A stretch of DNA of 63,928 nt, filler included, from Folioceros fuciformis (taxonomy: Eukaryota), in assembly GCA_049999805.1 (NCBI GenBank). It is 5 parts of 5 records of this genome, joined end to end, with 100 filler letters (N's around TTAATTAATTAA, not from the genome) between each part and the next. Parts side by side here need not be neighbours in the genome. Positions count along the whole stretch, not along the records: positions 38,777 to 59,437 come from JBNGIO010005835.1; 4 more parts are not named here. One strand, given 5' to 3'. Below are positions 9,395-60,827 of the stretch, in pieces (position 1 is the first letter of the stretch; each line of letters opens with the position of its first letter). The notes under the pieces were generated by a model. It was given only the letters and a program-made list of their open reading frames with translations, had not been told where the DNA came from and ran no database searches. The translations under genes were made by a program, and so were the position numbers.

Positions 9395-12300
9395 CTACCA
9401 TATGAGTGACTTATCTAGTGTCATGTAAGTACTACAATCCACCAACCCAAGCCCTTCTCGGTGGTAAGAGTGTTTAAAATTGGGCAAGGACTTGGTAAGT
9501 ACATCTGCTGTGTTGTCGTCAGTAGGTATATACTGAACCTTGACGATACCTCGCTCAGCAGCATCCCTTATATAGTGATGTTGTATCTCTATATGTTTGG
9601 TGCGTGCATGAAAGACGGGGTTAGCAACCAAAGCAATCGCGGACATGTTATCACAATGCAAGATAGTTGGCCCTTCTTGCTTCATACCCAAGTCTTCGCA
9701 AAGCTTCCTTTCCCATTCAGCCTCCTTTGTAGCTTCGGTAAGAGCCTTATACTCTCATTCTGTTGAAGATAAAGAGATGGCTGCTTGTTTTCTACAAGAC
9801 CAGTTAACTACGGAGGAGCTGGCTAGGAGACAAAAGGCTGATATGCTTTTGCGGGTATCAGCGTCTGAAGCCCAATCTGCATCTACATAGCAGGTGAGTT
9901 GGAGACGCTTCTTTCCGCTGGGTTTATAGCAAAGACCATAATTGGGGGTACCCTTGAGGTACCTCATGATACGCTTGAGGGCTACCCAGTGAACCTTTCC
10001 TGGGTTCTCAGAAAACTGAGCAACTGCATTTACAGTGTTGGAGATATCAGGCCTTGTTTGATTACTCAAGAACATAAGAGTACCTACGGCCATACGATAA
10101 GGGATATTCTCCATCTCTTTCTTGTCTTCTTCAGACTGTGGACATGAAGCAGAAGAGAGCTTAACACCAAAGGCACCAGGTGTGGTAGACGCCCTTGCAT
10201 TCTCCATGTTAAAACGTTTGAGCATACCGGCTACATATCTACCCTGGTGTACGTAAATAGCGCCTGTGCTATCTCTATGTACATGCATGCCAAGGATATA
10301 CTTGACCTTTCCTAGGTCCTTCATTTCGAATTCCCTGCTGAGGTCAGCCTTAATCTTGTTGACTAAGTCTACGTTGTTCCCTGGAATGACCAGGTCATCA
10401 ACATAGAGGGCGACTAGAACAAGTGAGCTATCCTTGCGCAACACATAGATATTAGTATCAGCTTCGCTTTGGACAAATCCTATTTTCTTAAGGTAAGAGT
10501 CCATCCTCTCATACCACAAGCGTGGGCTCTGCTTGAGTCCATAGATAGAGCGGTTGAGTTTACACACCTTGTGTGGGCATGCCTTGTCTTCGTAGCCCTC
10601 AGGTTGATCCATGTAAATCTCTTCCTGTAGATGACCATAGAGAAAGGCCGTGCACACATCTAGCTGATAAATTTCTAAGTTTAGTTCAGCACATAATGCA
10701 AGGAGCATCCTCACGGATGCAGCTTTAACTACGGGTGAGTAAACCTTATCGCCTTGATAATCAACTCCCTCTTTTTGACTATACCCCTTAGCCACTAATC
10801 TCGCTTTGTAGCGGATTCTAGGCTCAACTTCCTGGAACTTTGTCTTAAGAACCCATTTGCATTTGACGGTCGATCTACCCTTGGGCAAGCTAACAAGAGA
10901 CCAGGTATTGTTTTTGATTAATGAGTTATACTCATCATCGACGGCCAGCTTCCATTTAGCTGCCTCAGGTCTTGAGTAAGCCTCCTGTAAGGTTAAAGGA
11001 TCTCCCTCTGCAGTAGCAACACTTAAGGCATAGGGGAAATCCATAGAATCACCATAGGTTAGATGAGCTTGATTAAACTCAATGTCAAATGGTAGGTCCT
11101 TCCAAAGATGTCTAGGCTGACGCACACGAGTAGGATATCTACGCTCGGGAGCAGCTGGTGGCCTAGGAGGGGATGAAGGAGTGGCGAGTGCTGGAATAAC
11201 TTCATGGGGCACCACGTGATCATAATGAACATGTTCAACATCACCTTGTTCCATAGGAAGGTCCTCCACTACAGCGTCGTGGTATATCTCCATGTCCCCC
11301 TCTCGAGCAGGAACTAATGGCGCAGGAGCAGGCTGCATGTAAGGAACATGACCAGCAGCTGGCGGCAGTGGTCCTGCTAGAGGGATAGGAGCCACAGGAG
11401 GAGTAGGAGGAACACCATCAACGGGAAAGGAAAAGGGTTGAACATGGTGGTCAAGAGTGAGGTCACCAAGGGAGCGTGGAGTGCCGGAGCCAGAGGAAGC
11501 ACCATCGGGGATGCCAGGAGCAATCTCCAAGGATGTCCGGAGGGCAGGCACTATCTTGGCTTCATCAAAGGTGCCTGTGCGCGCATAGATTAGATTCCGA
11601 GTGGCCTTGTCCACGAGCTTGTAGGCTTTGCGATCATCACCATAGCCGACAAAAACTAGCTTCCGAGCACGAGCATCAAGCTTGTCACGGTGCTGTGAAG
11701 GGACAAAGGCATAGGCAGGGCAACCAAAAACACGAAGATGTGAGAGTAGAGGCTTGCTCCCGTGCCAGCACTCGTAGGGTGTACGGCCTGAAACCGCCTT
11801 AGTAAGGACCCTATTCTTAATGTATGCCGCCGTAGACACAGCCTCAGCCCAATAGGACTTGGGCAGCTGAGACTGAGTCAGCATGGCACGAGCCATGGAC
11901 ATCAAATCGCCGTTAGCCTTCTCGGCCACGCCATTCTGCTTGGAGGTGTAAGGTACAGTGAACTGGCGCAAGACACCACGCTCCTCGCAGAAGGCACGAA
12001 ACTGAGGGTTGTTGAGCTCTCCCGCATTGTCGGATCGAATACATCGAAGTTTACGACCAGTCTGTAACTCGGCCATAGCAACAAAGGGTGAGAACACATT
12101 AAAAGAGTCACTCTTAAGGCGGATGGGAAACGCAAACGTATATCGACTGAAGTCATCAACGACAGTCATAAAGTGGTTAGCCCCACCTAAAGACGCAACA
12201 GGGAGAGGACCACAGAGGTCTACGTGGACCAAGTCAAGAGGCGCAGTGGTCCGACTAGCAGGAAGAGAAGGATAAGGAGAACTTCGCTGTTTAGCAAGCA

Positions 12301-14023
12301 CACAAGCCTCGCAAAGAGGAGGTGTTGACGAAATTCGGGGAAGCTTATCATGATACAAGTCCTGCTGAGTCGTGGCCAGGAGCCGGGCTGGATTAAGATG
12401 TCCAAGCCGACAATGCCAAAGGAGAGCGTCACCTGGGTGGGATCTCCTTGAAGGCTGGTCTCCATGTGAGGGAACCGCCAGGGAAGTAGCTGCCGGAAGC
12501 ACGGGCTGACCTGTGAAAACATACAAGTCATGACGCGGACGTCCTCTAGCAACAACCACACGAGGGTTAGAAGACCGATATAGAAGACAATCGCCTGAAC
12601 CAAACTCTAGGCGAAAGGAGCCGTCCTTGACAAGCTGTCGAACAGAGATGAGATTCTTGGCCATCTGGGGAACATGTAACACATCAGTAAGCATCATGTG
12701 GGATCCATCAGCCAGAGTGAAGGCGACGGAGCCAATCCCCGCAATGGAGAGGCCAGAATCATCTCCAAGAAGTACGAAGCGCTGAGTGTCAGCAGCCGCC
12801 TCATACGTGGTAAACATGGTCTTGTGACTACAGATGTGCGTGGACGCAGCAGAATCAAGCAGCCAGGACTGCCTGTACTCAAATGCCACAAGACACATGG
12901 TGAGAGCAATTCCAGGTTGAGAAGGATTCTTGGCCTTAGTCGAGACAGTAGCCGAGTTGGCAGTACGAGGCTCTCGCTTGGCCTCACCAGCTTGCTTCTT
13001 CCTGCACTCCCTTTCCCAATGACCGGGCGTTTGGCACCAATTGCACGTGCCTTGTCGCTTCGTGGTCTTGGAAGAGGAGCCAGCCGAGGGAGCAGGCTTG
13101 TCGGAACCTTGTGAATTGTTCCTGTGTTTAGGTTTTGTAGAATTCTTACGCTGTTGTTGACGTCCTTTGGCGACGAACATGACCCGGTCTCCTCCGTGTT
13201 TTGAAGTCCCGACATTGAACCTGGCAGCCTCCTCTTGAAGGAGAGCTCCAGCTATCTCGGACACGGTGATGTTGGGTACCATACCCGACTGCACAGCCTG
13301 ATGTGCATTTCTCACCGTTTGGTTTTGTGAGGAGACAAAGGTCTGGTAGCTAGCAGGGAGGCTAGCCAATAACTGAACAGCCGCTTCAAATTCTGTGATG
13401 GTTGTGCCTAGAGCAGCAAGCTGAGCCCGTAGATATCTAAACTTGCTAACGTGTTGAGCAACGCTATCATTATGACCCATACGCAGAGAGTAAAACTCTA
13501 GACGTACTGTGACCAACGTCATAACGTTAGTAGATTGATAGATATCAGTGATTTGCTTCCAAGCTTCTGCTGATGTGGACGCACCATCCGTGTGGTGTAA
13601 TGTAACCTCGTCAAGGCCAGAGATCAACATCTGCATGGCTTGACGATCTTGACGAACCCAAGCGTCAAGGGCAACCGGATTACCGATGGGCTTGGGAAAA
13701 GTTCCTTCAACAATTGGGAGAAGATCCCTTGTGTTGAGGGCAGTCTTCATGCGCTTAGACCACACTTCAAACTTCGTGCCGTTAAATCTATCCTTTTCCT
13801 TAAAATCAGTGTTGATGTTAACGATATTGAAGTAAGGTTGGAGGCCTACTGTTGGTTGAGGTGGAATAGGGCCGGCTGGACCGCTAGGAGGTGAGGTGGG
13901 TGGTGGACTGCCCATCGGCACGCCCAAAGGTGGTGACGGGGGTCTGGATCCTTGCCGTGATGGTGACCCAAAGGGCCCCGCACCTGGACCAAACCCGGAC
14001 CCGGAGCTAGAAGCGCCTGCCAT
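9395..14023 (-). CDS. Ty1/copia Gag-Pol polyprotein (gag, CCHC, protease, GAG-pre-integrase, integrase, RT, RNase H) with one in-frame TGA at 9755-9757
   Basis: CNWCQTPGHWEREC; WLLDSAAS; LWHCRLGH...CEAC; VHVDLCGP, RSDNAGE, QNGVAE; KARLVAKG, LYVDD; DADWA, STE*EY, CDN, RTKHI, ADVLTK, in copia domain order. Confidence 0.95.
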
Positions 14024-14182
14024 CTTTCGTGAACTTGTCTTCAACTCGTAAGCCGACAATATGTTGTGACACAAGGCCGAGAGTACGAGTTAAGAACAAA
14101 GCACGAATTACATATAATAAGATTATTACTCCTTAACTCTTAGAGTCCAACCAACATAGTTCCTCCCTTGATACAAGTGAGC

Positions 14183-45922: not shown

Positions 45923-46625
45923 CGCTCTCTTCTCTCACACACTCTCTTCTTCAACACCTCTATTCAGAACACAACAAATGGTTCAGGGAATAAGGGAAGA
46001 AATCTCTCCTTCCACTCCGCGCAGCTGGCGGATTCGTCCCCCTCACCACTCACTACGGACCACAGTCGACCGTTCAAGGAATAAGGGAAGGAGAAGCTCT
46101 CCCTCCACTCCAGCAGCTGGTGGATTCGTCCCCCTCACTTTCCATTGCAGAACACAGCTGACCATTCAGGGGATAAGGGAAGGAGATGCTCCTTCCACTC
46201 TACTCAACTTGCAGATTCATCCCCCTCACTTTCAACTGTGGAGCAAAAGTTCTCAACCACCCCTAGGAGCGTCTCGCACTCATTGCCCACCCAAACATCT
46301 CCAGTCCAGCCATGGATAGCGAGGGGATCTCAACCACAAGGAGTCTCCAACATTTGCTAATAAGAGAGGCACTAACATGCCCCTTTGTACAGAGTTTCCA
46401 AGAGCGGGAGCCACAACCCGCTATAAAGCCTAGTTCTAAAAATAGCAGGAGCCACAACCCGCTATAAAGTCTAGTTCTAAAAATAGTCAACATAAAAAAA
46501 ATATACCTTTAATGGGAGGTGGCACCAGATCAAAGATAGCATTTTGCCAAATCTTATTTAAATCAACTTTAAAAAAATATGCTGAATGGTAGGCGCCACC
46601 AGGTCAAGATAGCATCTTGACAAAT
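45923..46625 (+). repeat. Dispersed repeat copy 1 (direct repeat of 56336-57075)
   Basis: Long near-identical stretch; internal motifs ggattcgtccccctcac and ggaataagggaag recur. Confidence 0.9.
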
Positions 46626-46629
46626 CTGT

Positions 46630-47300
46630 GAGTGCAGCTGACTGCCCTTCCGCAAGGCATCAGTGCATACACACGCCTTTAGAAGGCCAGCGAATGTAAC
46701 CCACAAGACCCTATTGCTTTATTTGTCCTTACCAAGCAAGCGCCTCTTGGCTGAGTCCTTCATGTGCATAGCCAGCTATCAGGGAACTCCATTTGACCAC
46801 ACATCTTGTGTAGACAAGCTGTCGTAAACCTGGTGGGCATCTTTCAGTTCACCACATTTTGCAAACATGTCCACCAGGCAGTTGCACAAGACTAAGTTGT
46901 CCAGCTGGCCTCGTTTCACAAACCTCCGAGTGCAGCTGCCCGCCCTTCTGTATAGCACCAGTGCTCGCACAAGCCTTTAGAAGGCAATCAAAAGTAACAT
47001 CATAAGCCACAAGCAGGCCCTCTTGCTCCATCTTTCCATACAGAACCGCCTCTTGGCCTAGACCCTGCGGTGCATACCCAGCTAACAGGGCATTCCATGT
47101 CACTACATCCTTCGTGGACAAGCTGTCAAAGGCCTTGCCGCATTTTGCATACATGCTCACCACGGAATTACCAACACATCACAAACAAACCATCAGACAA
47201 GTCAGGAGGAATGCCACTCTTGCAACACATCACAGAGGCGCCTCGGGCATGAGCTAAACTTCTGCACCAATTAATGTCGCACAATCCCTAAGCACGTGGA
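46630..47300 (-). pseudogene. Degenerate PLS-class PPR fragment
   Basis: VSMYAKCG, KDVVTWNALLAGY, TFDCLLKACA, LVDMFAKCGELKDA with frameshifts and deletions. Confidence 0.85.
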
Positions 47301-48053
47301 CTCCTCGATGTAGCCATTGAAGTCTTGTAATTTGTGCAAAAGAAGAATACTCTTTTCAGCCGGAGATGGCTAAGGACGATCAGGGCCGTTGTTACGGAAG
47401 ACCTGTGTGGACTACAGAGCATTCTACAAGTCTTACTGAAGGCATGGTGGGAAGATCATAGAGCCTTCAGAGATATAGAGGAAGACTACAGAGCGTTCTA
47501 CAACTCTTACTGAACACTTGGTTTGAAGGTGAAAAAGCCTTCAGAGATGGAGAGGAATACGACTATAAACCCCGGACGAAGACACGACATGTTTTCCCAA
47601 TGTGGCAGCTTGTGTGTCTGGCGGAGTTTGTGGCAGAGTTGGTGACAAAGACGTGCTGGTGACCTGTATTGTCATGATGCAGATAGAAGGATATCTCAAG
47701 AAGGGCGTGGGCCAGGATCGCAAGCCCTTCTTGCCTGCAGTGCTATGCCAGAAGGAGGCCCTGCAACACCTACAAATGTGACATTACTGTTCACTACGGT
47801 AGGCGTTGCAAGGTTTCTTCCGAGGGCAGCTGCAAAGAGGTCACTCTGCATCTGAAAGGGCAGCTACATTCCAGGAATCAAGAGCTGATGTACTTCGAGC
47901 CACATTGTGATAAACATGTCTGGAAAGTCCGCAAGCATGATTGACGTGCTGTATGCATAGATGGTGCGGCGAGGCGCAGCTGCACCGGCGAGGGCTTTCG
48001 GTATAACGATGGGCAGCGGTGTCTTGGAACCCCAGCGTCATCGCCTGTGAGCC

Positions 48054-50537
48054 ATGTGTGCTTGGGGCACCACACGGAAGGATGCATTTTTGTTGGGCCC
48101 GTGCTCGTTGGGCCATCAAGGTTGTGGGAGTTGCAGGTCTGCCGCCTTTCTTAAATCCAGGAAGCGAGAGTTGGCAAACAGCCAAGCCGCGCGATGCACC
48201 TTTTTCCAAAGGGGGCTAGTCTGTTCCAGGGGATGTCTGGCTGGAGAGGGATCGTGCAGCGAGAGTTCTCGTCAGGAGCGCTTGTGGCGGAAATTCTTTC
48301 TGGACCCGGCAGGTTGGTGGGATAGCAGGCAACAAAAGAAGAGCTCCCGGTCGCCGGACTTCCGACACAGGAAAAGCCAGGAGGTCCTGTGGGTAAACAA
48401 CTTCTACAAGCCACATTGGGTAGATGCGCAGCTGGCCGCTTTGGATATGCGTATGGGCCGGTGTGCCACAACATCCAATTGCCCTCCCAGACCCGCAAGA
48501 TGCGAAGGGGGTGTGACGCCTGAGACCGTGATCGAATTATGTCAGCAGAGGCTGGTAGATAAAGCCGTGGAGGCCATGGGAGTTCTGGTGGGCACAGGAT
48601 GTCATGTTTCGAAGTCTCTTTTTTATGCTGTTCTCAACGAGTGTGTGGCTTACAAGGATCTGCATCTGGTTCAGCGAGTTCACGTTCTCAGCAGGAAGCA
48701 GGGGTATGAGTCGGACACGTTCTTGTGCAATCATATCCTGCGGATGTATGGCTCGCATGCCAGGCTGCAGGAAACTATGGATTTCTTCCATATGGTTGCC
48801 AAACCAGATGCCTTCACATGGTCTGCCATAATCTCCGCGCACGTTGAACGTGGACAACACAAGCGGGCCCTAGACCTGTATCGAAGGATGCGCACGTCCG
48901 GTGTGAAGCCAGATGGCCATGTGTTTGTGGCAGCTCTACAGGCTTGTGCGAGGGGAGAGGACTTGAGAACTGGGCAGCAGGTGCATGCTGACGTGTTGGC
49001 CACTATCCTTGAGCCTCATTTGGTTGTTTGGAATTGCTTGGTGGACATGTATGCAAAGTGTAGCAGGTTGGATGACGCCCGACGAGTGTTTGACGGAGTT
49101 GGTCAGAAAGATGTTGTGACTTGGAATGTTATGATAGCCGGGTACGCTCAGCAGGGCGTAGGCCAGGAAGCCTTTCGTCTTTACAGTGCAATGCAAGAGG
49201 AGGGCCTGGCTGCACCCGACAGTGTGACATTTGTGTCTCTTCTGCAAGCATGCGCAAGTGTAGGCACCCCGGCTCTGGAGAATGGGAAGCATCTTCATAC
49301 AACAGTAAGAGAACGGGGCCATGAAGCTGATCTGTTCGTTGGCAATAGTCTGGTGAACATGTATACAAAATGCGGCAGCTTGGAAGACGCTCAGACAGTG
49401 TTCGACAGGCTTGTGCAAAAAGATGTAATCACGTGGAATGCCATGATAGCTGGTTATTCCCAGCAAGGGATGGGTCAGGAAGCCTTACATCTCTACAGTG
49501 CTATGCAAAGAGATGGCACCGTTGTACCTAATACTGTGACATTTCTATGTCTTCTGCAAGCATGTGCACATATGGCAGCCCTGGATCTGGGAAGGCAGCT
49601 TCATGTTCAGATCAAAGAACAAGGGCTTCAAGGTGAAGTGTCTCTGGCTACCAGCTTGATAAACATGTATGCCAGGTCGGGGAGCATGGCTGATGCACAG
49701 CAGGTGTTTGATACGTTGTCTAAGAGAGATATTGTCACCTGGAATGCACTGATTGCTGGTTACACCTACCAAGGAGATGGTGATCGGGTCTTCAACTTGG
49801 TTCAGAAATTGGAAGAGGATGGTTTGAAGCCAGTTGCGACCACCTTCCTTAATGTACTATTAGTATGCAGTCACATAGGTCTACTGGATAAGGGACAAAA
49901 GTATTTCGAGGCTATGAGCAAACACTATTCCATCACTCCCACGGTACAACACTACGCATGCATGTTGGATCTCCTGGGCCGTGCAGGCCGATTGGATGAG
50001 GCGCTAGCTTTGGCAAGGACAATGTTGGTACCTCCCGATGCTGTGGTTTGGGCCGCCCTTTTGGGTGCTTGTCAAAAGTGGAACAATGTGGAGGTGGGAC
50101 GTCGTGCGTTTGACGAAGCAGTGAAGCTGAATCATAAAGATGCTGCGGCGTATGTTCTGATGTCAAACATATATGCCGGTGCCCAGATGTGGGAACAGGT
50201 ACGTGAGATTCAGGAGAGGAGGGTAGCACGTGGGGCATGGAAGCAGCCAGGTCAGAGCTGGTGGACAGACATGGAAGGGCTGGTGCTTAGTTTCTTGGTG
50301 AAGGATAGAACACCTCCGACAAGTGGATCTATTGTGGCGTATCGTTTTAGAATGCATGAGGATGTCACAGCAGCCAGCTACCCTCGAGATCGGATCCATA
50401 GTCAGAGTCATGAAACGGATGTAGTCGAAACGCGGGAACTCGGAAAGATGGGCAAACCAGGGAACCCACATTTTTTTCTACATGTCCGTAACGGCACGAA
50501 ACTGGAATACACAGGCTACGCCAGCGGGATAGTATAA
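48054..50537 (+). CDS. PLS-class PPR protein with E domains and WW-type PG box, N-terminal OSB-type PDF motif; DYW deaminase core absent
   Basis: Repeating LVDMYAKC / DVVTWN.MIAGY / TF.SLLQAC; E region VWAALLGAC..YVLMSNIYA; KQPGQSWW; N-terminal LWRKFFLDPAGWWDSRQQKKSSRSPDFRHRKSQEVLW..KPHWV. Intronless. Confidence 0.92.
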   Translation: MCAWGTTRKDAFLLGPCSLGHQGCGSCRSAAFLKSRKRELANSQAARCTFFQRGLVCSRGCLAGEGSCSESSRQERLWRKFFLDPAGWWDSRQQKKSSRSPDFRHRKSQEVLWVNNFYKPHWVDAQLAALDMRMGRCATTSNCPPRPARCEGGVTPETVIELCQQRLVDKAVEAMGVLVGTGCHVSKSLFYAVLNECVAYKDLHLVQRVHVLSRKQGYESDTFLCNHILRMYGSHARLQETMDFFHMVAKPDAFTWSAIISAHVERGQHKRALDLYRRMRTSGVKPDGHVFVAALQACARGEDLRTGQQVHADVLATILEPHLVVWNCLVDMYAKCSRLDDARRVFDGVGQKDVVTWNVMIAGYAQQGVGQEAFRLYSAMQEEGLAAPDSVTFVSLLQACASVGTPALENGKHLHTTVRERGHEADLFVGNSLVNMYTKCGSLEDAQTVFDRLVQKDVITWNAMIAGYSQQGMGQEALHLYSAMQRDGTVVPNTVTFLCLLQACAHMAALDLGRQLHVQIKEQGLQGEVSLATSLINMYARSGSMADAQQVFDTLSKRDIVTWNALIAGYTYQGDGDRVFNLVQKLEEDGLKPVATTFLNVLLVCSHIGLLDKGQKYFEAMSKHYSITPTVQHYACMLDLLGRAGRLDEALALARTMLVPPDAVVWAALLGACQKWNNVEVGRRAFDEAVKLNHKDAAAYVLMSNIYAGAQMWEQVREIQERRVARGAWKQPGQSWWTDMEGLVLSFLVKDRTPPTSGSIVAYRFRMHEDVTAASYPRDRIHSQSHETDVVETRELGKMGKPGNPHFFLHVRNGTKLEYTGYASGIV

Positions 50538-53900: not shown

Positions 53901-56219
53901 TGCGGTTAGCATGCCCTAGGCGAGCATGCCACAAAGATGCAAGCTGACTAGCATTCATGTTGACCGTGTACGCTGCATGGCTTGTGGACGCAGGAGAACA
54001 CTTCTGCTCTAGCCTGTACAGGTCATGATCGAGGACACCTCTAAATGCGCAGATGTTAGGTGAAGATTTTCTATAGAAGCAACAGGCATCATCAACCATA
54101 CGCATCTCATACATGAAAGACAGAGAAAATGTGTTCAAGAGTTTTATGCCACACAGCACACTTGGTCATGATATTAGTGACCTGATAGGTTTTCTCAAGC
54201 TGATTCCAAATCTCAATGCCCTTGGTCAGGTACTCAACATCAGGAACAAGAAGGGTATCCAAGCCATTGATAATGACAGCAACAACAACTTCATTGTGGG
54301 CTGTCCACTTATCTATATCAACTTGGGCACCGGTTTGAGAGTTAGGCTCTGGAAAACTTCCACCCACAACACTCCAGACTCCCCTAGCTATCAGGAGAGC
54401 TTTCATGCGTACCTTCCACACATGGTACAGTTTCCCATTAAACCTATCCTTCTCTTTCAATTCTGATGTGAAAGAGGGACCTGTAGCCATGGTTTGTGTA
54501 CTTGTGACAGGTACTATTGGCAGAAAATTCCAGAAATTGGATATATTAGCAGCCTGCAGGTCCTCTTCCCCCTTCGACGAGGTAGAACTATGATCTGATG
54601 GATCTAAGACTGCACCTAGGCTGATGTCAGATGCACTATGTACACTGCCAGCTAAAGACTCGTCCAAGCTGAGGTCAGATGCACTATGTGCACTTTCGGT
54701 ATTGGACATGTGTAAACCAGCTAAGTCCCTTTCAAAACTATGGTTCAAGAGGAAAAATAGCGAGGTTAGTTATGCTTTGATGTAATTGTCCCTAGAAGAT
54801 GCTCATGTGATACTAACGATGCGTTTCCAGGGGGTTAGTTGGGGGAGACAACCTGAGAGGGGATGGATACATAGTGTATTCAATCCTACACAGGCTAGCT
54901 CCCTCATCCAACTTCCTGGCTGCGTGAAAAGGGTGTAAGTGTGAGAAGGGACACAACTTTTCAAAAAGTATCGTTTGAGTTCTTTACGTAGGGTTTCTAA
55001 TCGACTTTTCTTGGTTTTATGAACAGACATGTCAGTTGACGGACCAATCTCATGCAAAGAGACGCAACCAAGCCAAGGGTCAGCAACACAATTGTGACGC
55101 TTCAGATCAACGCCAAAAGCCACTGTTGATCCTGTACGCCGTTTCGCATCTCCAGCGCTCCCCGCCAGCGGAAGCAGGGTCACAGGAAGGAGTCTCCGCT
55201 CGCACGCAAGAACTCTGTGGAGAATCCTTGACTAAGATCCATCGCACGCATCATTCCAGCAATCTGTGAGATGTTTCTATCAATTCTGGAAATTTGTGTG
55301 TCGATGTAGACTTGCAGACGAGCAACACCGTCTCTCAAGATGTGCTGATTGAACAGGAGTTTTTCAAGGGAAGTCCCAACAGGAACCTCAACTGAAATTT
55401 GCTTTTCTGCAGCCAATTTCTCTACTTGTTTCTTGTATGAAGTAGATTTTTCTACAGCAATTGCGCCGTCTTCTGCAGATGTTTCTCCCTTCAGCCACCT
55501 AAGCGTCCTCTTGTAATTTGGATGATTGCATACTTCTCCAAGGGCTCGCAACTCCCAATCAACAATAGGACCAAATTCAGGGGTGTTAGGAGAAGAGGCT
55601 GAAAGTGTTGACTCCTCAGCACAATTGACCAGTGGTTGAGAACGAGGATCAGGCTGGTTCCTAGCAATGCACCGGGCCCGGTAGAGAGAATCTACTCCTG
55701 AGGTTCTCAACTGCTGTAGCCTAATCGCACGCGCTCTGGAACTTGCTGTGCCTGAGTTTCTAGCAACCCACTGTCGTAGCCGTACGTCGGGGTAGTTGGC
55801 CTCGTACAGATCCAAAACGCTAGCAGCAGGGACTCGACTTGAGTTTTGTAGCCTTCTCTATTGACGTCGATCTGCACGGGATCTACCCNNNNNNNNNNNN
55901 NNNNNNNNNNNNNNNNNNNNNNNNNNNNNNNNNNNNNNNNNNNNNNNNNNNNNNNNNNNNNNNNNNNNNNNNNNNNNNNNNNNNNNNNGGATCTACCCCG
56001 GCGAGGCATTATGTCTTGAGAAAAGTAGAGAGCATTTGGAGCTCTGATACCATGTAAAATATGCGGAGAGCAGTTTGGCTCGACAAAGCTTAATGTCAAA
56101 TAATGAAAAATGATTGCAAAATTGTATGTGTGTATTGTTCAAATACTAAACCCTAAAAACGGTTCACGTATGTTTAACCTAAAAAAACCTTTATACTTAA
56201 TGTTGGCTTTATTTCCAAT
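50956..56219 (-). mobile_element. Ty1/copia element (copia C): LTR 56053-~56219, PBS 56041-56052, accessory ORF, gag with internal deletion (knuckle and protease lost), integrase, RT, RNase H with TAG stops
   Basis: GCTCTGATACCA; KEKDRFNG; LWHARLGH..CEAC; RSDNGTEF; KARLVARG; LYVDD; DADWA; RTKDIEIQHHYIR. Confidence 0.92.
55180..56009 (-). CDS. Accessory ORF (~240 aa) between PBS and gag of copia C, with one TAG if the gap is closed
   Basis: GGATCTACCC occurs on both sides of the N gap; merging gives MPRRGRSRADRRQ*RRLQNSSRVPAASVLDLYEANYPD... in frame with the 211-aa ORF; C-terminal heptads. Confidence 0.6.
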
Positions 56220-57075
56220 AAGCAGCGGGTGGATTCGTCCCCCTCTCCTCAGCTACGGGCCACAATTAATCCTCACTCTTCTCCTCCTCACTCACTCACT
56301 CCTTCATCCACACTTTAGCTCCTCGTCTTCTCACGCGCTCTCTTCTCTCACACACTCTCTTCTTCAACACCTCGATTCAGAACACAGCAAATGGTTCAGG
56401 GAATAAGGGAAGAAATCTCTCCTTCCACTCCGCGCAGCTGGCGGATTCGTCCCCCTCACCACTCACTACGGACCACAGTCGACCGTTCAAGGAATAAGGG
56501 AAGGAGAAGCTCTCCCTCCACTCCAGCAGCTGGTGGATTCGTCCCCCTCACTTTCCACTGCATAACACATATGGCCGTTCAAGGAATAAGGGAAGGAGAT
56601 GCTCCTTCCACTCTGCGCAGCTTTTAGATTCGTCCCCCTCACTTTCAGCTGTGGAGCAAAAGTTCTCCACCACCCCTAGGAGCATCTCGCACTCACTGCC
56701 CACCCATGCATCTCTAATCCAGCCATGGACAGCGAAGGGGATCTCAATTGGGAGAAGTCTTCAACATTTGCTAATCATAGAGGCACCAACAGGCCCCTTT
56801 GTACAAAGTTTCCAAGAGCAGGAGCCACAACCGCTATAAAGTCTAGTTCTAAAAACAATCAACTTTAAAAAGTGTGCCCTTAATGGCAAGCGGCACCAGG
56901 TCAAGATAGCATCTAGCCAAATCTCATCTAAATCAACTTTAAAAAAGGTGCCCTTAATGGCAGGCATCTCTAGGTCAAGATAGCATCTTGCCAAATCTTA
57001 TCTAAATCAACTTTAAAAAAGGTGCCCTTAATGGCAGGCGACATCAGGTCAAGATAGCGACTTGCCAAATCTTAT
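56220..57075 (+). repeat. Dispersed repeat copy 2, ending in ~72-bp tandem units
   Basis: Matches 45923-46625; units aaatcaactttaaaaaaggtgcccttaatggcagg...ggtcaagatagcatc x3. Confidence 0.9.
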
Positions 57076-57329
57076 TTAAATACTATTTTAAGATGCAACC
57101 ACTCTTGGCCTACCTTAGCGCCACGCTTTCCTCCTATCCATTCTTTTGGCCCTCCTTCCCCTGCCACAAAATCTTCAGGCTCTCCTTTTATGCTGCTGAT
57201 TGGGCAAATCCTTCCATAAAATATCCACCTCACTCCCGCTGCTGGCTGACCTATCCTGGTTGTCCGTTCTCTGCCCACTAGGCATCCAAGGATGCTGGAG
57301 TGCCCCCTGTCACTCTGGCTGCAGTTATT

Positions 57330-58931
57330 TCTGTTCCGTTTATAGGTTCATGGCAGATTGAGCAACCCATGACACCGAGGGTAAAGATGTGTATATATAG
57401 ATATGTCAAAAAGGTTGAGGGAAACAAGCAATATGTCCTGGCTACATTAAAACGGTTACAACTACCAACTAACATTCATCTAGGGTTATGAACGGTGCCC
57501 TAGGTATATACAATGCTCTATAAGTATTAATTAAATAATCAACACCCCCTCTCATTGGATATACGGATATAACAATTAACCACCGGGTACAACAAGATAG
57601 ATGTTCGCCCAGGCACAGTCTTTCTCTCTCGCGTCGAATACACCAGCTCACGCAGCTCCGATTGACCTGTCAGCTTCTGACGATGCAAGCCTTGGCGGAT
57701 TCCAGTGCGCCTCTGAGAACGGACCACTGCCTTCACAGCGCCTCTCTGCAGCCGCCCCAGCAACAAGAGAAACACTAGGGATTCGAGCCATGAGGCACAA
57801 AATCTGCTCATGTCCTGCTGCAGATCTGCCGCCATGTCCGGTCCATCCTGATGGGGAACTTGCTTGGAGAGTGGCTGACAGAGGTGGAGCCAAATACTGG
57901 CAGAAACTGCTACGGGAAGCGAAGGCGAGGGAAGAGAAGCTGGCCAAGGAAGTCTCTGACCTAAGGAGAGCTGGTGCTTCGACCTCTAATTCTGCTCCTC
58001 GCTCCTTCAACTATGGGAAAACTAGAACTGAGAAGCTAACTGAAGGTCTTGACCAGATTGTGCTGCCAGAGGACTTCCAGGCTCGGGAGTACAAGCTTCC
58101 GACAGGGCATCTGTACCAGGGAAGAAGAGTAGTCACTGACGGTGACGGTGTTGACGACCCTGGAACGCCGGAGGTGTACATCTGCCCAACAACTAAAATC
58201 ATGATGTTTCGGCAGAATTGGTGGAGATGGGGAGGCCACGACGGGAACTTCATCTCCTTCTACGGTATGACAAAATTCGCAGCTTGTCTATGCTACTCCC
58301 ACTATTGTCGTGGTGTGACCTGCTGCAGTAAAGTTCTGACCAAATGATTCGATTATGACAACAGTATCCAGGGAGAGGATGGCTGAGGAGGCTGGTGTCA
58401 ACTGGACTGATGAAACAGACGAAGAGACCAGTGACGAAGGGCCAGACTTTGATCCCAATTTTGTTGGCCTGCAACAGGCAGACAGGAGAGGCAGATCTAA
58501 ATTCCTATCACCTTCCAGTTCTGAAGACAAGGGATCATCATAGGCTGGCACTAGTAGGTAGGACTTAGAAAGTAGCATAAGTTTCTGACCTTGATACCTA
58601 CTTATCAGCCTCACAGTAGTTTCCTCACTTACGGCTGGACTTGTCTGTGACGTGAAGTGGACTTAAGACTCCTAAAGACTCTTTGAATTGATGGTGCTTC
58701 AACCTAGGTAATGCTTTGGTAAGTATATCTGCCGCATTCTGCTCAGTTGGAATATACTCTAACCTCACCTGTTTGGTCTCAACTGCATGCCTCACAAAGT
58801 GGTGATGCACTTCTATGTGCTTAGTCCGGGCATGGTAAACTGGATTCCGAGCTAGAGCAAGGGCAGACTGGTTGTCACAATAGATAATTGTGGGACTCTA
58901 CTGCTCCTGACCCAAATCCGCTAGGAGTCGT
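57330..58931 (-). mobile_element. Ty1/copia 3' end (copia F): RNase H end, ~1.07-kb 3' region, PPT 57545-57553, 3' LTR starting at 57544 (far end approximate)
   Basis: CDNQSALALARNPVYHARTKHIEVHHHFVR..ADILTK; minus strand GAGAGGGGG followed by TGTTGA. Confidence 0.85.
57601..58347 (+). CDS. Antisense accessory ORF (248 aa), Cys/His-rich, inside the copia F 3' region
   Basis: True ATG, uninterrupted frame; CSC-x7-CPVH, charged helix, aromatic-rich segment, CLCYSHYC..CC. Confidence 0.65.
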   Translation: MFAQAQSFSLASNTPAHAAPIDLSASDDASLGGFQCASENGPLPSQRLSAAAPATRETLGIRAMRHKICSCPAADLPPCPVHPDGELAWRVADRGGAKYWQKLLREAKAREEKLAKEVSDLRRAGASTSNSAPRSFNYGKTRTEKLTEGLDQIVLPEDFQAREYKLPTGHLYQGRRVVTDGDGVDDPGTPEVYICPTTKIMMFRQNWWRWGGHDGNFISFYGMTKFAACLCYSHYCRGVTCCSKVLTK

Positions 58932-59437
58932 TGTGGAGGCAAAACCCCGGGCACTGATTGCCGACGGGTCCCACCTTTAGTGGCCACACTTATCCCACTG
59001 TCGTTGAGACATTGGGTTTCGTTCCCACGAAGGAGCGATGGGGTTCCTTGCTGCTGTGGATGGAGGGTCGGACTTGATGAACTCGATGATGGATTCGAGG
59101 GCTCCCCTCCAGCTCCGATCAGGCGTAGGACAGGCCTCGCTGTCCGGCGGTCAGCTGCACCTCTCTCGGTGCCCACAAACTCACTCCAGTCACTACAACG
59201 ACTCTAACCTCTCAGATCTGCGTCTTCCTTCACTCACTTCACTCACTCTCTCGCTCCAGCACCAACACCAGCAACTACTAGCAACCAGCAACGACACCCC
59301 TACCTTGTATACTTCCCTACGGACTCCTCCTACCCGGCAAGAGTCACTAGACTAACCCCAAACAAAAGGAAGAAGGGAACACACTCCCCTCTTGGGTATC
59401 TCCTCCCCACAACCTTACCAGACGCCATGAGACATGG
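58932..59437. mobile_element. Third Athila-like LTR end inserted in copia F RNase H
   Basis: Starts TGTGGAG exactly where the copia frame breaks; shares GG.CCACAC....CCC...TCG.TG with the LTR ends at 19595 and 43231. Confidence 0.65.
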
Positions 59438-60075: not shown

Positions 60076-60233
60076 GCCATCTAAGATGATTTGGGTTTGT
60101 TTGTTGACCCTTCTTTCCCTTTGTGGTGTGCATGTTACCCCGCTTCTCACCCTCCTATATCGCATAGTTTTGCCATTACCGGGTTGGGCAAGGTTGACAC
60201 ATAATACATTGTGGGTTTCAAACTAGACGTTTT

Positions 60234-60423
60234 TGATGAGCCCTGTGGAACCGCATTTTAATGAGCCTGTGGAATCGCATTTTGATGAGCCGGTGGAACC
60301 GCATTATGATGAGCCTGTGGAACCGCATTATGATGAGCATGTGAAACCGCATTTTGATGAGCCCATGGAACCCCATTCTGATGAGCATGTGCAACCACCA
60401 ACTGATGAGCTTGTGCAACCACC
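60234..60423 (+). repeat. 24-bp tandem repeat, about 8 copies
   Basis: gatgagcctgtggaaccgcattat units (DEPVEPHY if translated). Confidence 0.9.
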
Positions 60424-60827
60424 TTCTCTTAAGGTAGCCAACCTATTGAATGCGACTACTAAACCATATTCTGGTGACACAACTTGACCCACTTTGTGAT
60501 ACTGGTGAATCACTTGACAGTTTTGGAGGTTTGGTAGAGACGTCTTTGGGGTGTGGCCAAAGCTAGGGTGTGAACTTGTACGTGCGAAGAAATTATTGGA
60601 CATGACAGTTTTTAGTAGAGTGAGTTGCCCTAGGTTTCTCTGGACGTCACAAGATTGCGGTAAGATGGAGAAAATCAATGCAAGAAATCTTTATTACTAA
60701 TCATTAGAGACGGATGACAGTCATAATTGAGCGGACAAAACATCCTTCTCAGAAACGGATACACAACCCATGATTCTCGCTTTTGAAATCATGTGTAACC
60801 AAGGTGGTAATCACGCGGAGCTACAAG

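Follow-up and report, generated by a model that had tools for sequence, protein, structure and literature searches.

Antisense open reading frames located between pol and the 3' LTR, referred to as aORF-3R, have been described in Ty3/gypsy retrotransposons, with examples in maize Grande (gene23), rice RIRE2, Silene Retand and bean pvRetro13 (ORF2) in the available parts of the original accounts (PMC7264820, PMC11963269, PMC4093653). The GENE23 protein of Grande is nuclear, and the study that lists antisense 3' ORFs in Grande, RIRE2, Retand, pvRetro13, and Boty recommended that antisense and spliced transcripts be looked for (PMC7264820). With brtn, Boty, a fungal Ty3/gypsy element from Botrytis that is known here by its description in citing papers, likewise carries a further gene in antisense between pol and the 3' LTR (PMC7264820, PMC8365987). 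The available part of PMC4093653 describes an antisense ORF2 for 15 families of gypsy elements and env-like ORFs for 2 families of copia elements.

Among copia elements, an extra ORF occupies the same slot in SIRE, where the env-like ORF (copia eORF-3'F) was found in sense orientation in 74% of the elements and in antisense orientation in 1%, according to the available part of the REXdb survey (PMC6317226). In the table of that survey, which applied a cut-off of 250 codons for ORFs, 13 of the 16 copia rows contain no antisense 3' ORFs, and the rows for Bianca and Ikeros hold 2 small values whose column assignment is ambiguous in the available version (PMC6317226). This agrees with an earlier note on the DNA studied here, which did not regard such antisense ORFs as a standard feature of copia elements. 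Among the titles and abstract openings of the literature outside the subscription journals, none was found to describe a spliced antisense gene in a clade of plant copia elements.

HBZ of HTLV-1, a regulatory gene that a retroelement carries in antisense at its 3' end, is spliced and helix-rich, and no homology is expected between it and an antisense ORF in a copia element. Its expression from an antisense LTR promoter is cited in the available text of PMC7264820. The VANC proteins of the VANDAL DNA transposons are another example of element-encoded accessory proteins, and a coiled coil mediates the predicted dimerization of VANC21 in the available part of PMC13547354; we found no sequence or fold likeness to VANC, and the comparison is one of analogy.

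Here, we describe an antisense gene in a stretch of 63,928 nucleotides from Folioceros fuciformis, referred to as the window. It resembles the aORF-3R genes of gypsy elements in that it is an antisense gene located between pol and the 3' LTR throughout a lineage, but its host is a Ty1/copia element. The spacer between pol and the LTR is about 1.1 kb, as compared to 2.9 to 6.6 kb in the available description of Retand, and the coding region contains a predicted, conserved intron, whereas none is reported for the gypsy aORF-3R genes in the available parts of the descriptions compared. Unlike the aORF proteins of Retand and Ogre, neither the ORF nor any member of our alignments had a Pfam match to Transposase_28, SMC, or the plant mobile domain. 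The env-like ORFs of SIRE and Athila are recognized by their sense orientation and a transmembrane segment, and the SIRE elements are about 10 kb in the available descriptions, whereas the ORF studied here is antisense, has no transmembrane stretch in exon 1 (best 19-residue hydropathy 0.35), and is located in an element of 6.6 kb.

The Host Element and Its Surroundings

The antisense ORF belongs to a Ty1/copia LTR retrotransposon, of which the window contains the 3' end only. The 3' LTR of 213 bp (57332 to 57544, minus strand; TGTTG..ACA, with TG..CA ends) matches both LTRs of the sister copy L021 as well as the copy L022 at 97% to 99%. It is abutted at its start by a purine run taken as the polypurine tract (PPT, about 57545 to 57554, minus strand), which is identical in L021 and L022 and similar in diverged copies. 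Of pol, the RNase H end alone is retained (58625 to 58931, minus strand; coding match at 58628 to 58897), with 97% to 100% identity to L021 and L022 and an interruption upstream, and a spacer of about 1.1 kb separates it from the PPT. The homology to L021 breaks at about 58932, where a young high-copy repeat that starts with TG and is not part of the element has been inserted into pol (58932 to 59437). This repeat is likely an LTR, with 39 other near-whole matches at 96% to 99% identity among the 40 that were scored of 936 candidates. It was also noted that the end of the repeat adjoins 2 other copies of the antisense ORF, L038 and L043.

The sister copy L021 is a full-length element of 6.6 kb with 99% identity to the window copy, and a tblastn search placed gag, integrase, RT, and RNase H in the order typical of copia. 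Its LTRs of 213 bp differ at 8 sites and are flanked on both sides by the 5-bp target site duplication TACAC, and it carries a Met-type primer binding site (PBS) as well as a PPT, with 1 frame change and 1 stop in gag-pol. PF07727 is present in the RT relatives of the element, and the best public RT matches are at most 54% identical.

The surrounding window is repeat-rich plant DNA. The element seems to have been inserted into a sequence that is likely the LTR of another element (56054 to 57331), with internal repeats of 92 and 74 nt and a partial copy at 45923 to 46627. A frame of 225 codons on the minus strand (55183 to 55857), which starts at an N gap and is located directly behind a Met-type PBS (about 56036 to 56047) and ahead of a copia gag (54110 to 54769), has 49 matches in the genome and no Pfam match, and may represent an extra ORF at the 5' side of a different LTR family. 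Yet another copia element is represented by an open frame of 1444 codons with gag, integrase, and RT (9755 to 14089, minus strand) and no match to the antisense ORF. The window also contains a PPR gene in a single frame with an E motif (48051 to 50537, plus strand), minus-strand PPR fragments near 46780 to 47180, and a 24-nt tandem repeat in 7 copies (60218 to 60433).

Extent of the Antisense ORF and Its Predicted Intron

The ORF of 248 codons with 2 Cys patterns that the earlier note had described opposite to pol was found on the plus strand at 57601 to 58347, antisense to the RNase H end, and is located between the pol stop and the PPT, which is the position of an aORF-3R. The note placed its start about 57 nt inside the LTR boundary; the distance is right, but the ATG is located on the internal side of the LTR edge and thus outside the LTR. 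The ORF was also said to converge on the RNase H stop, which is in fact 277 nt away from the ORF stop, and to be intact, which holds for the window copy but not for L021 and L022. In these 2 copies, which are 98% to 99% identical to the window, the frame is likewise open to 58347, but the sequence has one base fewer near 57621, which brings the ATG at that place out of frame. The ATG at 57601 is thereby in frame in 1 of the 3 near-identical copies, and the next in-frame ATG is at 57790. The sister subfamilies mostly have an ATG 7 codons upstream of a PIDL motif, present in the window as PIDLS (57658 to 57672, plus strand), which may resemble a SUMO-interacting motif; that ATG is missing in the subfamily of the window. 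The start is therefore uncertain, and the form found in the window may be the accidental outcome of a private mutation.

A comparison of donor and acceptor sites across the copies points to a phase-1 GT-AG intron of 100 nt (58265 to 58364, plus strand) with a branch-point-like CTGAC at 58336 to 58340. The predicted exon 1 would then cover 221 codons and 1 nt (57601 to 58264, plus strand, with the uncertainty about its start), and the predicted exon 2 the 58 full codons of an acidic tail with 15 D/E (58365 to 58543, plus strand; stop at 58541 to 58543, 81 nt from the RNase H stop). Removal of the intron would join the tail in frame to exon 1, yielding a protein of 280 amino acids (221 + 1 + 58) from 57601 or 217 amino acids from 57790. 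A donor GT was located one base after the conserved GNFISFY in 42 of the 46 loci that could be scored, 4 further loci being unscorable, and the sequence was GTRAG in 35 of them, as compared to a background frequency of 0.25% per position. Among the 31 loci for which the start of the acidic segment was located, 23 had an AG before exon 2 and 24 a branch-like YTRAY within 40 nt of the exon-2 start (23% expected), and the AG marks the onset of the exon-2 homology in diverged copies. The 8 acceptors without AG and the 4 donors without GT were read as decay. If the frame is instead read past the donor, 39 of 46 copies encounter a stop within 27 codons, many at the shared positions 4 to 7. The window copy and near-duplicates are included in all of these donor, acceptor, branch, and stop counts.

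The predicted introns range in length from 82 to 117 nt and fall in all 3 frames (14/14/3 modulo 3). The alternative of a frameshift or a separate ORF for the acidic tail was rejected because the spacers occur in all 3 frames and several copies contain no Met at that place. The acidic frame that the earlier note had seen next to the ORF does exist (58340 to 58543), but judging from the aligned copies it is most likely exon 2 and not a separate frame. We consider it very probable that the aORF is a spliced coding gene, as predicted. The expression data consisted of a single run, which covered neither the aORF of the window nor that of L047.

The Predicted Protein

The CSC-x7-CPVH motif and the charged helix of the earlier note were both recovered in the predicted exon 1. 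The motif (CxC-x7-CxxH, 57805 to 57846, plus strand) was complete, as CxC-x6-7-CxxH, in 24 of 47 loci and partial in several more, a conservation that makes zinc binding plausible, and it likely represents one zinc site. The helix was modeled by AlphaFold2 at residues 88 to 127 (57862 to 57981, plus strand), with pLDDT values of 94 to 97 over residues 101 to 120, and is likely a coiled coil. The most conserved part of the protein is an orphan domain of 81 residues, the core, which ends with WxRWGGxxGNFISFY (58021 to 58263, plus strand; mean column identity of 54% over the 28 rows of alignment A2). The domain is strand-rich, its composition of 12 D/E and 9 K/R gives no clear basic patch, and the N-terminus of the protein was modeled at low confidence. 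The AlphaFold models had a pLDDT of 59 and a pTM of 0.27 for exon 1 and a pLDDT of 46 for the core, and the homodimer prediction score was 0.02.

No homolog was identified at E 0.01 among 998 candidates in a search with the single protein, among 7993 candidates with alignment A1, or at E 0.001 in a full HMMER scan of 1.84 billion representatives, and none of 267 pattern matches in metagenome contigs was confirmed as a homolog. The ESM Atlas gave no usable hit for the whole protein and a best value of 0.78 for the core, the Pfam hits were all below threshold, and the PDB sequence search returned coiled coils only, at E 0.5 or worse. Fold searches matched the helix-bearing model to generic coiled coils only (Z at most 4.6), and nothing was found at Z 2 for the core model with its pLDDT of 46. 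A suggested likeness to the methyl-CpG-binding domain received no support from Pfam or the PDB.

Distribution, Co-inheritance With pol, and Purifying Selection

The search for further copies that the earlier note had proposed yielded 75 matches to the aORF protein in the genome, some of which are pieces of one copy. We inspected 50 loci, 30 of which were returned by the genome search and 20 of which were taken from its list. Of the 30 returned loci, 29 had a copia pol directly downstream in the opposite orientation, the exception being L031, and nearly all inspected matches with enough flanking sequence were in an element context. These findings agree with the suggestion of an element-borne accessory gene and exclude a single-copy host gene.

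A quick pol tree was inferred from the 34 loci that offered sufficient sequence of both pol and the core, the 3 other copia elements of the window, and 30 public proteins. In this tree, 33 of the 34 carriers formed one clade with an SH-aLRT support of 100, from which the 3 other copia elements and the 30 public proteins were excluded; the remaining carrier, L074, fell outside the clade, perhaps because the adjoining pol belongs to another element. The aORF tree repeated the 11/22 split and most of the subclades in the pol tree, and the pol and core distances were correlated (rho 0.30), with none of 1000 permutations giving a value as high. A further 20 relatives in pol had given no first hit to the aORF; exon 2 only was present in 5 of them and a core relic in 1, and 14 had no clear match, of which 2 stop at the edge of a contig, 1 consists mostly of N, and 3 gave faint profile scores. 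The aORF is present clade-wide, though some relatives have lost part or all of it, and most copies carry stops or frameshifts.

The pN/pS values in 9 disjoint pairs, mostly tree neighbors and with some segments missing in some pairs, were 0.54 for the part upstream of the core, 0.32 for the core, and 0.39 for exon 2 (Fisher p 1e-11 or lower for each). For the 27 codons that follow the core, read in the frame of the ORF, the value in the 9 pairs was 1.04 (p 0.91), and the mismatch after the donor was equal at the 3 codon positions (0.36/0.35/0.36). In a pooled comparison of the window with 27 diverged copies, which are not independent, pN/pS was 0.38 for the core and 0.25 for RNase H, as compared to 1.09 and 1.44 when the core was read in the shifted frames. 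Both predicted exons are under purifying selection and the frame of the intron is not. The frame conservation among copies is that of a selected accessory gene, as had been proposed, and protein conservation in most family copies is also what characterizes an aORF-3R. Given the codon-level conservation and the 75 genome matches, the ORF is more than a product of chance. The last 27 codons, with the CLCYSHYC-x4-CC pattern that the earlier note had read as protein, have no coding signal and are most likely intron.

A Conserved Block in the Predicted Intron

The conserved look of this second Cys cluster stems from a non-coding DNA block, CCAC-N7-GTGG, inside the predicted intron (58298 to 58318). 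The mean pairwise identity of the block was 75%, as compared to 46% at third codon positions, in 25 of the 26 aligned introns, the alignment being anchored on the motif itself. The block matches once in the whole window, and an exact pattern search of the genome gave 3 matches, all of which are aORF loci, with a pattern too strict to show absence elsewhere. A similar block was observed behind pol in L093 and L088, 128 and 297 nt after RNase H, where no aORF was detected; the block may therefore predate or outlast the gene. For 7 of 21 copies, as compared to 1.8 expected, it was the intron that held the best match to the copy's own PPT, and on the basis of its sequence the block could be an old PPT or a second plus-strand primer site.

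Possible Functions of the Antisense Gene

We tentatively favor, without ranking it as probable, a conserved two-exon antisense accessory gene whose nuclear protein acts as a trans-regulator of the element. Transcription by RNA polymerase II would run from the LTR/PPT end towards pol, and excision of the 100-nt intron would link the orphan domain with the acidic tail. The intron could survive retrotransposition because the genomic RNA that is copied represents the opposite strand, on which the splice signals would not be read. The zinc motif and the orphan domain might bind nucleic acid of the element, the helix might oligomerize the protein, and the acidic tail could activate transcription or compete with chromatin factors, thereby keeping the element expressed in a regulatory or anti-silencing role. 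The lack of a homolog, the pLDDT of 46 for the core model, and the absence of a clear basic patch speak against a link of the protein to the nucleus, DNA, or silencing. The preference for a nuclear trans-regulator rests on the domain layout and the precedent of Grande, and in the favored ranking of roles it is followed by a factor acting on RNA or particles and then by an integration adaptor.

A somewhat unlikely alternative is that the same spliced gene encodes a cytoplasmic RNA chaperone, export, or packaging factor that binds a CCAC-N7-GTGG hairpin in the genomic RNA. On the genomic strand the block does form a stem of 4 bp with a 7-nt loop (alifold -3.4 versus -1.4 kcal/mol) and is kept better than synonymous sites, and a zinc motif, a coiled coil, and an acidic tail also suit RNA-handling proteins. 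However, 3 of the 4 stem pairs barely vary among the 25 copies, a compensatory change was seen in 1 of them, the outer pair is broken in 5, and the fold searches revealed no RNA-binding fold.

It is more doubtful that the spliced product acts at integration, as an adaptor for guiding or importing the integration complex via a host chromatin factor, a role proposed generally for antisense aORFs (PMC7264820). The core profile weakly matched yeast Ies6 (Ies6/YL1_C, E 0.011), but this lead failed against the Ies6 of the same genome, with an hhalign probability of 0.4% and a profile score of -0.5 that was equaled or surpassed by 166 of 500 shuffles. The Ies6 gene of this genome (INO80 subunit C) was located at L076:1132-1656, with one open frame over the conserved part.

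An orphan protein that is selected only inside a mobile element would also fit a passenger gene of the selfish kind, for instance a toxin or a drive factor that aids spread while leaving replication untouched, but we consider this improbable, as no likeness to an enzyme or toxin, no partner gene, and no transmembrane stretch was found. Very improbable is an unspliced product of 248 residues with 2 Cys/His clusters: the open frame to 58347 in the window and its 2 near-identical copies, and a donor in this subfamily (GTATGA) that is weaker than the usual GTAAG, would speak for it, but the early stops after the donor in most copies and the neutral substitution pattern of the 27 codons speak against it. 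That the aORF was captured from the host, or is a frame open by chance, and has no role for the element, as the decay of most copies might suggest, is scarcely credible and largely refuted by the codon statistics, given purifying selection across pol lineages that are about 30% diverged in protein, the lack of a host-like homolog in the 1.84 billion representatives, and the element context of nearly all inspected matches with enough flank.

A bolder version of the trans-regulator, which we regard as unlikely, is an intron-containing anti-silencing or trans-activator gene of an undescribed copia lineage, in which the protein, a new family, would bind the palindromic CCAC-N7-GTGG block located in the intron of its own gene, thereby marking and protecting its own clade only. 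If true, such a gene would be the retrotransposon counterpart of the VANC system.

Significance for Copia Retrotransposons

To our knowledge, plant copia elements are thought to need gag and pol only. Antisense 3' ORFs are already known from gypsy elements and nearly absent from the 16 copia rows of the survey in PMC6317226; what is new here is a selected antisense accessory gene in a copia clade, probably with 2 exons, that encodes an orphan protein. Exon 1 is below the cut-off of 250 codons given in the available part of the survey in PMC6317226, and such genes would therefore escape screens based on ORF length. The combination of a small orphan protein, a defined predicted exon structure, and a candidate target sequence makes the role of antisense accessory genes directly testable. 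An entire clade of copia elements has maintained a third gene by selection, and the antisense slot would let a retrotransposon retain a gene that contains an intron.
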